The notes under the pieces: model-generated
What the model was told of the DNA's origin: nothing
The model's database searches: none
The model's input: only the letters and a program-made list of their open reading frames with translations
DNA from: Anaerolineae bacterium
Lineage (GTDB): Bacteria > Chloroflexota > Anaerolineae > E26-bin7
Assembly: GCA_029933115.1 (NCBI GenBank)
Contig: JAOZOT010000001.1
Span: 1-40,117, forward strand
Length of the DNA: 40,117 nucleotides
Direction of reading: 5' to 3'
Shown here: positions 2,190-6,360 of the stretch, piece after piece
Numbering within the stretch: the stretch's first letter is position 1
Layout: every line of letters starts with the position of its first letter
Made by a program: the position numbers and the translations under genes

Positions 2190-2263
2190 ACTCTCCCTAC
2201 TCCCGTTGGGCAAAACCGGCTGGCCCTTCGACGTTGCTTAGGACAGGCCGTGGACGGAGGAGA
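2167..2263 (+). pseudogene. Stub of a GT2 gene start (copy A)
   Basis: It reads [20 protein letters not shown], then a 24-nt insert carrying an in-frame TAG, then WTEE. This is homologous to the start of the intact GT2 at 5332. It sits in a different frame from the GT4 3' end that it overlaps. Confidence 0.7.
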
Positions 2264-2500
2264 CCAGTCACATGCCTCCGTGGCCTGCCACCTCCCGACA
2301 TCACCGGCGCGGGCGACACTGTGGTCGCCGCCCTGTCATTGGCCCTGGCCGCTGGCGCTACTCTGGAGCAGGCCGCACGGCTGGCCAACGCCACTGCGGG
2401 CATTGTGGTGGGCAAAGTAGGCACGGCGACAGTATCGCTGGAGGAACTGCATGTAACTTTGTCCAACGGAGGTGACCATGCGCTGCCCACCCCTGAGTGA
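2264..2500 (+). pseudogene. 3' remnant of a PfkB-family sugar kinase (RfaE/HldE domain-I-like)
   Basis: Only the last ~65-75 codons are present. '[47 protein letters not shown]' matches the C-terminal GAGD/anion-hole region of PfkB kinases. No upstream kinase body exists. Confidence 0.7.
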
Positions 2501-2579
2501 GCTCCCGCCCCCGCCGCCGGATAAAACCGGCTGGCCGTGGACGGAGGAGAGCCCACAGCTTCCGGATGCCATGCCCGAC
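2478..2579 (+). pseudogene. Stub of a GT2 gene start (copy B)
   Basis: It reads [34 protein letters not shown] with RBS 'ggaggtgacc' upstream. By hand alignment it is about four-fifths identical to 5332-5433. It breaks off into the GC-rich repeat at 2580. Confidence 0.75.
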
Positions 2580-2647: not shown

Positions 2648-4273
2648 TCACAGATTGATGGGGTATCGGCCGTACGTTCTCATCAACAAATTAACGTCTT
2701 CCAGACCCCAGAGGTGAAGCTCTTCCTCTTCTGCCAGAGCAGGCACACGGCTGTCGTATCCGGCCAGGCAGATCAGAATCTTCTGTTCGACCGGACAGGT
2801 AACCAGGGAGCGCAACTTTTCCAGAAAACGCTTTGCCATGCCTGCGTCCACGGGCCTATCCTTCACCTCAGCGATCCAGACCCGGCCTTCACGACGGGCG
2901 ACGATGTCGTATTGCTTACCATCAATCACCTCAGCGGCGACACTGTCAAAGTGGGGGAGACGCAGCCCACGCAGCGAGGTTCGGCCATCAAAGGCGGCGA
3001 ACAGTTCCCTGATCCTGGCTTCGTTGCCCTTGCCAAGTTCCGTTTTGAAGGCGGCGATCATTCGCTCTACCTGGCTTTTGAAAAAATCATACCGCTCGTG
3101 CAGGCCCAGAATGGTCAGGTCCTCTTCCAGCGAGTAGACCTCCCGGATCCAGAGTTCCAGCAGGGGGTCCAGGAAGAAATATCGGGCCTTAGCACGATAC
3201 AGGAAACCCATATCCACCAGCCGCCGCAGGGGGGTGCTGACATTCTCCTTTTTCAGCCGCAGCGCCCTGGCGATCTCGGAGACGGAATGTTTTCCCAGGG
3301 CGATGGCCTTCAGCAGGTTGAGGTAGGTCTTGTAGCCCCGCGCCTGGAAGGAAGCCTCGATGAGATAGGCCAGGTAAGTGTAGATCGGCCCGTTGCTGGC
3401 AAAGGTCGTGGAGAGAAGCGCTTCGGTGATGACCGACTCGCTGGCGCGCCTGAGGGCCGGGGCGCGCCTGAGGATCTCATCGGTGAGGACATCGAGGTAG
3501 TAGGGATAGCCCCCGGTGGTCTGAGCCAGGAAGGCCAGTTGGGTCTCGTTGAGCAGCAGTTTGCCGGCCAGTTTCTCGATGATGAAGCCCCGAGCTACAG
3601 GGAAGGGGAAGGGCTGCACCAGTTCGATCTTGAAATGGCCAAAGAGGGGGTTCTTCCGATTGCGGAACATGTCTTCGATAGCGCTGATGGAGGAGCCGGC
3701 GACGATGAGGCCGAAACGCCGCTGATGAAGGAGATGCTGGCGCAGCCGGTGCTCGAAGGCGGGATAGCCGAAGGAGCGCACGTTCTGGAATTCGTCCAGG
3801 GCCAGCAGGTAGTAGATGTCCCGTTCCTGGCCCAGTCTTTCGGCCAGTTCAAACAGCAGGTCGAAAGTGACCTCGGCCTCTTTGGTGACCAGGGAGGGGA
3901 GGTCGAGCCATTTGCTCCCCAGGCGGGGAAAGAGGGGCAGGAGAGCCTGGGCCAGGGAGCGGAGTTTTTCCTCCCGGTTCAATCCCAGGAGCGCTGTCTG
4001 GTCGAGAGCCTGGAAGTGGAGAGCTGTGCGGGTGAGGAGACTCAGCAGAGCGGCCAGCGCAAAGTCCCGGAAAGAGCCCGGCTCGACATAGGTGTAGCAG
4101 AACAGAACATGCTCGTGTGAGCGCAGCATTTCATCGAGGCGGAAGAGGATAAGGGTTTTCCCGATCTTGCGTACCCCGATGAGGGCCAGGTTCTCGATCT
4201 TGCCCTGGGGCAACCCCTTGGCCAGAGCCAGGAGCCTGTTCAGTTCATCCTCGCGGTTGTAGAAAAAGGACAT
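2648..4273 (-). CDS. Archaeal-type P-loop ATPase (Arch_ATPase family) with wHTH and C-terminal DUF234-like domain
   Basis: This is a 541-aa ORF. N-terminus is 'FYNREDELNRL', Walker A is 'GVRKIGKT' and Walker B is 'YLLALDEFQ'. A wHTH-like stretch reads 'HSVSEIARALRLKKENVSTPLRRLVDMGFL'. The C-terminal 'QYDIVARREGRVWIAEVKDR' resembles a D..E-x-K nuclease-type core. GGAG lies 8-9 nt upstream of the ATG. Confidence 0.85.
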   Translation of the reverse strand: MSFFYNREDELNRLLALAKGLPQGKIENLALIGVRKIGKTLILFRLDEMLRSHEHVLFCYTYVEPGSFRDFALAALLSLLTRTALHFQALDQTALLGLNREEKLRSLAQALLPLFPRLGSKWLDLPSLVTKEAEVTFDLLFELAERLGQERDIYYLLALDEFQNVRSFGYPAFEHRLRQHLLHQRRFGLIVAGSSISAIEDMFRNRKNPLFGHFKIELVQPFPFPVARGFIIEKLAGKLLLNETQLAFLAQTTGGYPYYLDVLTDEILRRAPALRRASESVITEALLSTTFASNGPIYTYLAYLIEASFQARGYKTYLNLLKAIALGKHSVSEIARALRLKKENVSTPLRRLVDMGFLYRAKARYFFLDPLLELWIREVYSLEEDLTILGLHERYDFFKSQVERMIAAFKTELGKGNEARIRELFAAFDGRTSLRGLRLPHFDSVAAEVIDGKQYDIVARREGRVWIAEVKDRPVDAGMAKRFLEKLRSLVTCPVEQKILICLAGYDSRVPALAEEEELHLWGLEDVNLLMRTYGRYPINL

Positions 4274-4292
4274 GGTAGACAGCTCCGTCTAT

Positions 4293-4341
4293 AGACAAAC
4301 TTGTCTGCTATGAGTGTAGCATAGCTTCACCACCTTGTCAA
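4293..4341 (-). promoter_or_regulatory. Predicted sigma70-type promoter plus palindromic operator for the ATPase gene
   Basis: On the minus strand: TTGACA (4341-4336), 17-nt spacer, TACACT (4318-4313). A perfect palindrome AGACAA-NN-TTGTCT (4293-4306) lies between the -10 and the RBS. A further inverted repeat gctatg/catagc is at 4307-4325. Confidence 0.6.
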
Positions 4342-4531
4342 AAGGGATTCGTGTCAATTCGTGGTGAAACGACCCGGCGGAGGGACAAGAGCATTTGTAC
4401 CCAAATGGTGCTTCACAACCAGCCATTCGCCATCCAAATTCAGCCACCAGCAAACTAGAAAAGACTGTGGCCATAGAGTATTGGCAGGAAACTGAAGAGG
4501 AACACCCAGATGCCCAGGGGCCTGAGCCGTC

Positions 4532-4945
4532 TCACGTACGCTCGAGCTTTTCAATCCGGATTCGATCCTCAAGTTGCTCTGGTTCAGGGTCCCCGGTCAC
4601 CAGAACGGCACCCAGGTCCTGGGCCGTTGCGGCGGCGAAGGCATTTGCATAGGAGATGGCATACCCCATCTTGAAACGGGCGGCTGTGAACACGGCTTCC
4701 TCGGTGGCAGGAACAACGGTCAGCGACAAGCGGCGAATCTCATCCAGCGTTTCCTGGGCCTCCTTCTCCCCTTTGACCTTACCGATGCGGTAGATGACCT
4801 CGCCGAGGTTGATGATGGAGATGAACAGTTCGACGTTCCCTTCCTCTGCCTCTTCCAGCAACCCTTTGACCCGTGAGGCTGCCGGCTCTTCCTTCTGCAA
4901 GAGAGCCAGAACCGCCCACGCATCAAGGACGAACCGCTTCTTCAT
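4532..4945 (-). CDS. vapC: PIN-domain toxin, VapC-like
   Basis: This is a 137-aa ORF. It has 'FVLDAWAV' (first acidic residue), 'LGEVIY' and 'LVTGDPE'. It overlaps the upstream AbrB-type antitoxin gene by 23 nt. The position I expect to be Asp reads Asn ('ISYANAF'). Confidence 0.8.
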   Translation of the reverse strand: MKKRFVLDAWAVLALLQKEEPAASRVKGLLEEAEEGNVELFISIINLGEVIYRIGKVKGEKEAQETLDEIRRLSLTVVPATEEAVFTAARFKMGYAISYANAFAAATAQDLGAVLVTGDPEPEQLEDRIRIEKLERT

Positions 4946-5168
4946 GTTCTATCTCCCGGCGGTGTTCTGCCTCCAGGTCGGTGAGGAAATCGGCATCGGG
5001 GTATTTGCCGTACAAGGCGGCGATGGGAGAGGGGGTTATCGGCTCCAGAAGGATTCTGCCCTCAGTGACCCGGATATGGAACTGAGTACCGGTTCGCAGC
5101 CCCAGAGCCTGCCGTATTGCTTTGGGGATGACCAATTGACCCTTGGATGAAAGTTTGGTTAACATCAT
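4923..5168 (-). CDS. vapB: SpoVT/AbrB-domain antitoxin, VapB/MazE-like
   Basis: 'LSSKGQLVIPKAIRQALGLRTGTQF' is the swapped-hairpin AbrB motif. I moved the start from 5183 to ATG 5168 because GAGGTGA sits 4-5 nt upstream of it. Confidence 0.8.
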   Translation of the reverse strand: MMLTKLSSKGQLVIPKAIRQALGLRTGTQFHIRVTEGRILLEPITPSPIAALYGKYPDADFLTDLEAEHRREIEHEEAVRP

Positions 5169-5189
5169 TATTTCACCTCGCATTGGTAT

Positions 5190-5237
5190 GTCTTACCTTT
5201 AAGTCTAGATTGTAAGACGAATCAGCCAATTTGTCAA
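5190..5237 (-). promoter_or_regulatory. Predicted sigma70-type promoter plus inverted-repeat operator for vapBC
   Basis: On the minus strand: TTGACA (5237-5232), 17-nt spacer, TACAAT (5214-5209). A 7-bp inverted repeat GTCTTAC (5190-5196) / GTAAGAC (5212-5218) overlaps the -10. Confidence 0.6.
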
Positions 5238-5280: not shown

Positions 5281-5331
5281 ACATTTGGAAGGGCATTGTG
5301 CTACACCGTTTAACGTTCCAACAGAGGAGCC

Positions 5332-6360
5332 ATGCGTTGTCCAACCCTGAGTGAACTTCCGCCCCCGCCGCTGGGCAAAACCGGCTGGCCGTGGACCGAG
5401 GAAAGCCCACAGTTGCCAGACACGATGCCTGATGGACAACCCTGGCCGCGGGTAAGCATCGTCACGCCGTCGTACAACCAGGGACAGTTCATCAAGGAGA
5501 CCATCCGTTCAGTGCTGCTCCAGGGCTATCCGGACCTGGAGTACATCATCATTGATGGCGGTTCCACCGATGGCAGCGTGGACATCATCCGCAAGTATGA
5601 GCCCTGGCTGGCCTACTGGGTTAGTGAGCCGGATGAGGGACAAGCAGATGCGATCAATAAAGGTCTTCAGATAGCGCAGGGAGAGATAGTAGCCTGGTTG
5701 AATTCGGATGATGTATACCTGCCAGGAGCAATGTCGGCTGTCGCAAAAGCCTGGATGGCATACCCCAACAGCCTGATCGTCGGGGATGTAATCAACTTTG
5801 ACGAGGAGACCGGCAAGGAGGAGTTGGTCCACCAGCAGGGCATCACCCTGGAAAAGTTTATTGACTTCTGGTCCGAACCAAGACCGAGTTGGCACCAGCC
5901 TGGACTGTTCTTCCCTCGTGTTGCTTGGCAAAGGGTAGGGCCGCTGGATGAGTCGTTGTGGTATGCCATGGACTACGACTTGATGTGCCGTCTGCTGCAA
6001 TACTATCCTGTCGTCTATCTGGATCAAGTAGTGGCAAAATTTCGAAAGCATCCGACGTCTAAAACGGTTTCTGGCTCATTGCGCGGCATGATAGAGCTTA
6101 TGACGGTTCCTCGACGTTATTGGCATCTGGTGCCAACCCTCGACACTGTGGAGTATGATCGACATTGCGTCCAACATTTAGTCAGGTATTTTGTGACGAG
6201 TGTTTTGCAGCGTCAGTTTGGCAGAGCCCGGTGTGCTCTGAAACATGCTTGGGAAATCAGTCCTGTTGAGACTGTACGGAGTGGGCTGCTGGAGATGTTC
6301 TCTCGCTCTCGTGAGAAGTTACAGAGGGGGTGGAAACATGCGTCTTCCCCAAGCCAGTGA
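5332..6360 (+). CDS. Glycosyltransferase family 2 (GT-A)
   Basis: 'PRVSIVTPSYNQGQFIKETIRSVLLQGYPDLEYIIIDGGSTDGS' and 'WLNSDD'. RBS 'agaggag' is 5 nt upstream. This is the intact copy (C) of the repeated gene start. Confidence 0.9.
   Translation: MRCPTLSELPPPPLGKTGWPWTEESPQLPDTMPDGQPWPRVSIVTPSYNQGQFIKETIRSVLLQGYPDLEYIIIDGGSTDGSVDIIRKYEPWLAYWVSEPDEGQADAINKGLQIAQGEIVAWLNSDDVYLPGAMSAVAKAWMAYPNSLIVGDVINFDEETGKEELVHQQGITLEKFIDFWSEPRPSWHQPGLFFPRVAWQRVGPLDESLWYAMDYDLMCRLLQYYPVVYLDQVVAKFRKHPTSKTVSGSLRGMIELMTVPRRYWHLVPTLDTVEYDRHCVQHLVRYFVTSVLQRQFGRARCALKHAWEISPVETVRSGLLEMFSRSREKLQRGWKHASSPSQ

Follow-up and report, generated by a model that had tools for sequence, protein, structure and literature searches.

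An ATPase–winged helix–nuclease-like protein encoded by a solo gene with a conserved leader dyad in Anaerolineae: a candidate DNA-targeting module

What does a protein of 541 amino acids (aa) do that combines an ATPase, a winged helix and a nuclease-like domain, and that is encoded by a solo gene in an inserted segment of a bacterial genome? The question is raised by a stretch of 40,117 nucleotides (nt) of contig JAOZOT010000001.1 from an Anaerolineae bacterium, here called the window, in which the open reading frame (ORF) at 2648..4273 on the minus strand encodes an ATPase_2-class AAA+ nucleoside triphosphatase (NTPase) followed by a winged helix and a PD-(D/E)xK nuclease-like domain. With about even confidence, we consider this gene to be a self-contained single-gene module whose role is most likely in DNA-targeting defence or conflict, of the type of PDC-S27 and PDC-S01, which are single-gene PADLOC candidates, unvalidated and abundant in archaea, in which an ATPase is fused to a PD-(D/E)xK domain (PMC12988326). 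In this model the AAA+ and winged-helix part would bind DNA in an ATP-dependent manner, like its structural relatives Orc1/Cdc6, and the C-terminal domain would then cut the DNA with Mg2+, both steps being suggested by the folds. The gene's own strong promoter would drive expression, a 32-nt dyad would hold it down as an operator for the protein's own winged helix, as an mRNA hairpin hiding the Shine-Dalgarno (SD) sequence, or as both, and promoter, leader and gene would move horizontally as one unit into variable regions.

A sequence-only reading of the window had described the ORF as an NTPase with a winged helix-turn-helix (wHTH) and a nuclease-like C-terminus, and this architecture is supported by Pfam matches and by structure models. 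Each motif that it quoted was found in the translation. The protein begins with MSFFYNREDEL, so that FYNREDEL occupies residues 4-11; the Walker A motif GVRKIGKT (residues 33-40, nt 4154-4177) fits GxxxxGK[ST], the Walker B motif LALDEFQ (residues 157-163, nt 3785-3805) fits hhhhDE, and the C-terminal string DIVA-RREGRVWIA-EVK (DIVA-x9-EVK) holds D456, E469 and K471. The AAA+/ATPase_2 module was placed at residues 4-260 (3494..4264, minus strand) from the Pfam matches and the full-length model. AAA_16 scored above its cut-off (37.7 bits), and ATPase_2 (PF01637) reached 28.4 bits (E 1.7e-6) over profile positions 1-222 of 225, below its gathering cut-off of 33.2 bits; ATPase_2 matched 57 of 61 relatives at E<=0.01. 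MarR/ArsR/TrmB-type helix-turn-helix (HTH) matches at residues 318-361 mark the wHTH, which was placed at residues 318-366 (3176..3322, minus strand; recognition helix KKENVSTPLRRL) from MarR_2, HTH_5 and TrmB together with the secondary structure of the model. The C-terminus had no match in the Pfam scan, the NCBIfam scan of the protein gave wHTH similarities only, and a sequence search of the full protein against PDB sequences gave no significant match.

The full-length AlphaFold model, computed with 17 homologues as input, had a pLDDT of 87.3 and a pTM of 0.79. Its top two PDB matches were 2qen (PABY2304; E 5.5e-14, TMt 0.67) and 2fna (SSO1545; E 4.6e-11, TMt 0.62), and the N-terminal ~385-390 residues share with such archaeal ATPase_2 proteins an AAA+ core, a helical lid and a winged helix. 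Further Foldseek matches of this model included Orc1/Cdc6 and RuvB and, lower down, Avs3, CED-4 and a plant NLR.

The C-terminal domain, assigned to residues ~412-541 (2651..3040, minus strand) from the model, Foldseek, a hidden Markov model (HMM) alignment and residue conservation, resembles nucleases. A separate model of residues 385-541 (pLDDT 86.5) had AF1548 (PDB 1y88) as its best Foldseek match (E 1.3e-4, TMq 0.60), followed by NucS/EndoMS, Cdn1, VC1899, AspBHI, MspJI, Can2 and Card1, all of which we take to carry PD-(D/E)xK nuclease domains; the hits with a probability above 0.9 were mostly PD-(D/E)xK nucleases. The core elements of the model (helix 417-427, strands 444-450, 453-461 and 464-471, helix 477-488 and strand 495-502) form the alpha-beta-beta-beta-alpha-beta fold of that superfamily. 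E418 falls within the first core helix, D456 within strand 2, and both E469 and K471 within strand 3, as is canonical for such nucleases. The predicted catalytic codons lie at 3020-3022 (E418), 2906-2908 (D456), 2867-2869 (E469) and 2861-2863 (K471). When a profile of the domain was aligned with AF1548, D456 and E469-x-K471 fell on EIDVVA...ECK in a weak match (E 0.14). The PD-(D/E)xK core suspected from the DIVA...EVK string is thus found again in the structure model, which matches AF1548/Mrr/NucS-type nucleases as a restriction-endonuclease fold should, and the conserved acidic and lysine residues form a complete set. The description of the C-terminus as DUF234-type did not survive: DUF234 (PF03008) gave no HMM match with the full protein at E<=1, with 13 C-terminal domains at E<=10 or with 61 relatives at E<=0.01, and the domain is AF1548/Mrr-like by its fold and by weak sequence matches. 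The nearest Pfam model for the C-terminal domains of the family is Mrr_cat (PF04471), which matched three of 13 close C-terminal domains (best E 0.0032) and 12 of 61 wider relatives (best 6.9e-8), with no match to the 541-aa protein itself; PDDEXK_10 matched two of the 61 relatives. We count the architecture of the protein, its modelled folds, the conservation pattern, the conserved leader and the variable contexts described below among the results of this work; that the protein cuts DNA, depends on ATP, regulates its own gene and serves in defence is what we infer.

The family is large. An exhaustive profile search found 350 representative clusters, counted at 50% identity, at E<1e-30 and 2,164 at E<1e-10; the top 150 members are mostly 500-570 aa long and align over nearly the whole profile. 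Close relatives from reference genomes come from Chloroflexota metagenome-assembled genomes, one being a Ktedonobacter. In 153 full-length representatives the Walker A and B residues are near-invariant (G38/K39 conserved in 152, D160/E161 in 143-144), and E418, D456, E469 and K471 behave in an all-or-none fashion. D456, E/D469 and K471 are complete in 46 of the 153, all of which also have E418, and these include the window protein and all of its close relatives; a few representatives have E, D and E without lysine 471, and most others lack all four residues. This pattern indicates that the catalytic unit is functional in some of the family, the window protein and all of its close relatives included, and that the domain is inactivated elsewhere. 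The earlier statement that the family has no assigned function holds.

The gene carries its own control region. A sigma-70-type promoter lies at 4313..4341 on the minus strand, with TTGACA at 4336-4341, a 17-nt spacer and TACACT at 4313-4318 preceded by TG, in agreement with the near-consensus promoter claimed from the sequence; between 2300 and 5500 five promoter-like sites were found where 0.7 were expected, and the promoter is at the same position in nine of ten aligned homologous loci. The perfect 14-nt palindrome AGACAAnnTTGTCT (also written AGACAAACTTGTCT) was found exactly as described at 4293-4306, between the -10 box and the SD sequence. Because the window holds 14 perfect 6-2-6 palindromes, chance rarity was dropped as evidence, and the significance of this one rests on its conservation in homologous loci. 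There it proved to be part of a larger element, a 32-nt dyad (4276..4307, minus strand) that reads cAGACAA-GTTTG-TCTATAGA-CGGAG-CTGTCTA in the window and contains the SD sequence GGAG at 4283-4286. The consensus TAGACAA-N5-TCTATAGA-N5-TTGTCTA, with the SD sequence in the right-hand spacer, stands at a constant distance from the -10 box on one side and from the ATG on the other in 11 distinct loci (the window, L001, L009, L017, L141, L005, L015, L029, L142, L144 and L146; L-numbers label the homologous loci compared with the window), whose proteins have identities to the window protein down to 48%. At the DNA level the other loci resemble the window only over a stretch that begins near the -10 box and ends shortly before the stop codon, which makes promoter, leader and gene the conserved unit.

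Other descriptions of the leader and its surroundings were tried. Two separate small hairpins or operators (TAGAC..GTCTA twice) were rejected, since no covariation is seen and two of their pairs are disrupted in every one of the five group-2 sequences. A single 32-nt dyad holds: at pair 56/65, five sequences have G-C and five have T-A, and pair 53/68 switches too. A metagenome scan with the 15-base core TAGACAA-N5-TCTATAGA was given up as a locus finder: the matches listed were almost all due to chance, several lying in one recurring coding context, and among them only L029, L037 and L091, which carry the extended motif, were at the start of a homologue. Downstream of the stop codon (2560-2660) there was no structure of the repetitive extragenic palindromic (REP) or terminator type, folding was no better than that of shuffled sequence, and the motif there was not repeated elsewhere in the window. 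On one short contig (L045, 245-300) a leader-like TAGACAAATTTGTCTATAGACATATTTGTC directly follows a reading frame ending in ...DPLLAVWLKSRS, which resembles the DPLLELWLRE motif of the family; tblastn detected no homologue on this contig.

Two functions suit the dyad, singly or together: that of an autoregulatory operator and that of an mRNA hairpin which sequesters the SD sequence. It had been suggested that the gene is regulated by its own wHTH at a putative operator, and this is plausible from the sequences compared, because the element and the recognition helix are conserved jointly, and paralogues that differ in the helix also differ in the palindrome. The helix KENV(S/N)TxLRRL is conserved wherever the element occurs (groups 1 and 2), and three paralogues in L141 as well as the archaeal relatives have other helices and other upstream repeats or palindromes, such as AAGGGTATATACCCTT. 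The invariance of the outer arms and centre of the leader across loci also argues for a DNA operator, as does the fixed position of the element at +1. The alternative is that the leader is mainly a hairpin in the 5' untranslated region of the mRNA, in which a U-rich anti-SD segment pairs with the SD sequence, and in some loci with the start codon, and limits translation with no part for the wHTH; it concerns the regulatory step only, and we judge it a real contender, if a little short of an even chance. RNAalifold gives one consensus hairpin, which consists of a UAUA loop, an inner stem of 6 base pairs (bp) and an outer stem of 7 bp. In two of its pairs both partners have changed in a compensatory way (GC/UA in 5+5 sequences, CG/UA in 4+3), but these changes are probably one event that split two clades. 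Positions opposite the SD sequence use G-U wobble (54-67 is UG in eight sequences and UA in two; 55-66 is UA in five and UG in four), which aids RNA pairing and is of no use to DNA symmetry. The same hairpin is the minimum-energy fold of the single sequence in seven of seven loci tested (z-scores -1.8 to -5.3), although that of the window itself is weak (-11.4 kcal/mol, z -1.76). Against the hairpin, its loop and outer arms are invariant and do not covary, and a search of Rfam with the leader gave no match. In group 2 the -10 box ends 2 nt before TAGAC, so that the left outer arm is probably upstream of the transcription start and would not be part of the transcript. The identity of the element follows the recognition helix across paralogues, which argues against a hairpin alone. 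The suggested operator has therefore gained a 32-nt dyad conserved in 11 loci, but the hairpin explains the wobble-tolerant pairing at least as well; the choice is close to even, and the two mechanisms are not exclusive.

Several observations on related loci touch on this element. In L141 (371-7656) four ATPase_2-wHTH-nuclease paralogues stand together, adjoining a HicB gene; the D...E-V-(K/R) motif is present in all four (K in two, R in two), and the recognition helix and the sequence upstream of the start codon differ in each. The called start of one of the proteins there (P0008) is an artefact in which the conserved leader is translated, the true N-terminus being in another frame. In the archaeal relatives the bacterial dyad is missing, and AT-rich repeats or palindromes of their own immediately precede the gene: GTATATATAC occurs three times in L012 (3750-3947), ACTATAGTTG twice in L019 (490-590), and inverted repeats of the TATTAAGCAC type are common to L014 (7800-8000) and L145 (6860-7000).

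The genomic contexts in which homologues occur bear on the proposed role. The homologues are always solo genes and their contexts vary; in ten of 14 distinct contexts a defence, toxin–antitoxin (TA) or mobile gene lies within ~5 kilobases (kb), a share that is suggestive, as a raw count without a background rate. In L005 (7614-11787) a homologue with 48% identity (P0010) lies between cas2 and the gene for a WYL-domain regulator, followed by a CRISPR array of 13 repeats; this type I-D locus, with genes for Csc2, Csc1, Cas3, Cas4-Cas1 and Cas2, was recovered from several samples. A homologue in L001 is part of an array of TA and HNH cassettes parted by diverged fragments of an epimerase gene, and those in L009 and L010 lie between transposases. 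Elsewhere a homologue has a YafQ/YoeB toxin nearby (L018), a CopG-type antitoxin at a distance of 3.5 kb (L142), DpnI and the type I restriction-helicase-like fragment T1RH-like_C in its vicinity (L145), or a PDDEXK-HTH gene as its neighbour (L012). In two related loci, L029 (7480-10272) and L144 (6936-9596), the gene immediately upstream of the homologue encodes an N6/N4 DNA methylase. L029 combines an intact methylase with an ATPase gene that has a frameshift at residue ~421; in L144 the methylase is split and the ATPase gene lacks residues ~467-519, including the ExK motif. This pattern may reflect a dependency like that of restriction–modification systems, or assembly errors. Disrupted copies of the homologue occur in three loci, as would be expected of a costly accessory gene.

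On these grounds a role in defence is plausible, and the case for it is circumstantial: the contexts are often of a defence, TA or mobile kind, but several are ordinary, and a number of points weigh against it. Four of the 14 contexts hold nothing related to defence, and TA genes are common in such genomes. Foldseek matched the nuclease domain with E-values of 1e-4 to 1e-2, which are modest. In PADLOC, the 61 relatives matched PDC-S27 in 19-21 cases (best 3.6e-20) and PDC-S01 in 11, but the window protein itself matches PDC-S27 weakly and over part of the model (E 1.2e-7, 29 bits; residues 135-360 aligned with positions 87-299 of the 474 in the model), covering the ATPase-wHTH part and leaving the nuclease part unmatched. 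When eight candidates were challenged in E. coli B with T4, T5 and T7, four of them protected, and the one PDC-S27 gene in the set did not (bioRxiv 10.1101/2024.09.26.614923). Finally, the complete catalytic motif is missing in 107 of the 153 representatives of the wider family, so that the function common to the family needs no cleavage.

Those 107 representatives keep the Walker A and B motifs, and they suggest an alternative, which we regard as unlikely, in which the protein is an ATP-dependent DNA-binding regulator or chromatin-type factor and no immune effector, with the nuclease-like domain serving in DNA binding or oligomerisation. Such a role would suit the archaeal and some bacterial members that are found among ordinary genes (RNA polymerase, ribosomal, CHASE2 kinase and pilus genes), sugar-nucleotide genes and further archaeal housekeeping genes being other such surroundings. 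It would also suit the closest folds, since Orc1/Cdc6 are DNA-binding switches and not nucleases, and one C-terminal domain weakly matches the Pfam family of the 'inactive restriction endonuclease'. However, the window protein and all of its close relatives keep the full E-D-ExK set, and the all-or-none pattern argues that it is functional where present; nor is there a conserved neighbour to regulate, as the homology between loci ends at the borders of the gene. For the part of the family to which the window protein belongs, a DNA-targeting module of the PDC-S27/PDC-S01 type is still the reading that we prefer.

The position of the gene in the window is that of an accessory gene. Next to it, on the same strand, lies a vapBC-type TA operon (4532..5183) with a PIN/VapC toxin (4532-4945) and an AbrB/MazE-type antitoxin (4923-5183), preceded by a near-consensus promoter of its own (TTGACA-17-TACAAT, 11 of 12 matches; 5209-5237, minus strand) and followed by a terminator-like hairpin (4505-4518, minus strand) ahead of the promoter of the ATPase gene. 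With its own promoter and this hairpin between them, the ATPase gene and the vapBC pair are separate transcription units in one inserted segment, which bears out the view of a stand-alone gene. The segment is bounded by two plus-strand direct repeats of 103 nt and 83% identity, of which the left copy (2476..2578) consists of the ribosome-binding site and the first ~34 codons of a GT2 glycosyltransferase gene and the right copy (5330..5432) is the true 5' end of the intact GT2 gene (5332-6360). Its GC content is 0.58-0.61, compared with 0.45-0.55 in the flanks. An inserted island beside a TA pair, as originally proposed, is supported by the VapBC neighbours, the repeats and this shift in GC content. 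A further partial copy of the GT2 5' end is present at 2166-2276, and an 88-aa ORF at 2234-2500 (plus strand), which matches the C-terminal end of the PfkB family of sugar kinases only (profile positions 253-299 of 302), is a gene remnant between repeat copies 1 and 2. The remaining window is a run of plus-strand ORFs, and those checked beside the insert encode a sulfotransferase, a glycosyltransferase and a methyltransferase.

A comparable arrangement is seen in L001 (1-15822), where small TA, HNH or ATPase cassettes are separated by a 100-300-nt fragment of a UDP-N-acetylglucosamine (UDP-GlcNAc) 2-epimerase-type gene that is present in at least nine copies (63-91% identity). No integrase was seen with the cassette-like insertions in either the window or L001, and the layout resembles a tandem site-specific accretion or an integron-like array. 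It is doubtful, though conceivable, that all of this amounts to an undescribed mobile single-gene restriction-like immunity module, that is, an ATP-driven wHTH nuclease with a Mrr-like catalytic domain and its own dual operator and hairpin control, residing in integron-like Chloroflexota cassette arrays delimited by repeated, diverged copies of a host-gene end. Searches of a phage collection and of IMG/VR found no homologue, and a plasmid search found distant relatives only, on haloarchaeal replicons; carriage of close homologues by phages or plasmids was accordingly rejected. That the gene is a selfish mobility or addiction gene, whose wHTH and nuclease promote the homing-like insertion or retention of their own cassette with no protection of the host, is improbable: the promoter-leader-gene unit is indeed the only part common to the loci, the insertions in the window and L001 are bounded by duplicated host-gene ends and transposases adjoin the gene elsewhere, but at least eight other cassettes in L001 have the same flanking repeats without any such gene, which is thus not needed for insertion there, the sequence of the cassette ends is not common between loci, and the phage, IMG/VR and plasmid results likewise speak against it.

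The subfamily lends itself to a clean test: the gene stands alone, its catalytic set is intact, inactive relatives exist in nature for comparison, and the control element that it carries is short and conserved. Candidates of the PDC-S27/PDC-S01 type are among the most abundant predicted defence genes reported, especially in archaea, and none has a demonstrated mechanism. Should the defence role prove true, a family of at least 350 sequence clusters (50% identity) would gain a function; otherwise the family would be another widespread ATP-dependent DNA-binding switch. Independently of this, the cassette arrays may be informative on the accumulation of accessory genes in Chloroflexota.

How does the protein compare with known systems? 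The best structural matches, the ATPase_2 proteins 2qen and 2fna (350 and 352 residues), are like its residues 1 to ~390, but they lack the C-terminal nuclease domain, and their own function is also unassigned; a literature search on Cmi2 and the solved ATPase_2 proteins yielded nothing usable. Orc1/Cdc6 and the STAND (signal transduction ATPases with numerous domains) NTPases, including Avs, CED-4 and NLR proteins, likewise have an AAA+ or P-loop core followed by a winged helix and gave significant Foldseek matches. Nuclease effectors are also carried by the Avs-type STANDs, but the window protein is much smaller than Avs and has no repeat-type sensor domain, and its upstream dyad comes with no origin-like AT-rich element.

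For the C-terminal half, the closest systems are AF1548, Mrr_cat, MspJI and AspBHI, whose nuclease fold is like that of residues 385-541 and whose D...ExK residues align with it. In Mrr a winged helix stands upstream of the Mrr-like domain, as it does in the window protein. The latter adds an N-terminal AAA+ module, and its sequence similarity to the AF1548/Mrr type is marginal; the modification-dependent cleavage of the type IV Mrr-type nucleases finds no support in its case. The overall design, a prokaryotic AAA+ ATPase with a C-terminal PD-(D/E)xK domain, is also that of the COG1672/DUF234 ATPases, which were classified as PD-(D/E)XK family 76, an uncharacterised combination of a DEXX-box ATPase and a PD-(D/E)xK domain (Steczkiewicz et al., 2012; PMC3424549). 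The window protein differs from these in having no PF03008 match and in that its nuclease domain is nearest to AF1548/Mrr_cat. With PDC-S27 and PDC-S01 it shares the class of architecture, and its homologues lie within or beside defence loci. The protein is a divergent variant of a known, uncharacterised class (COG1672/DUF234-like, PDC-S27/S01-like) and not a categorically new system.

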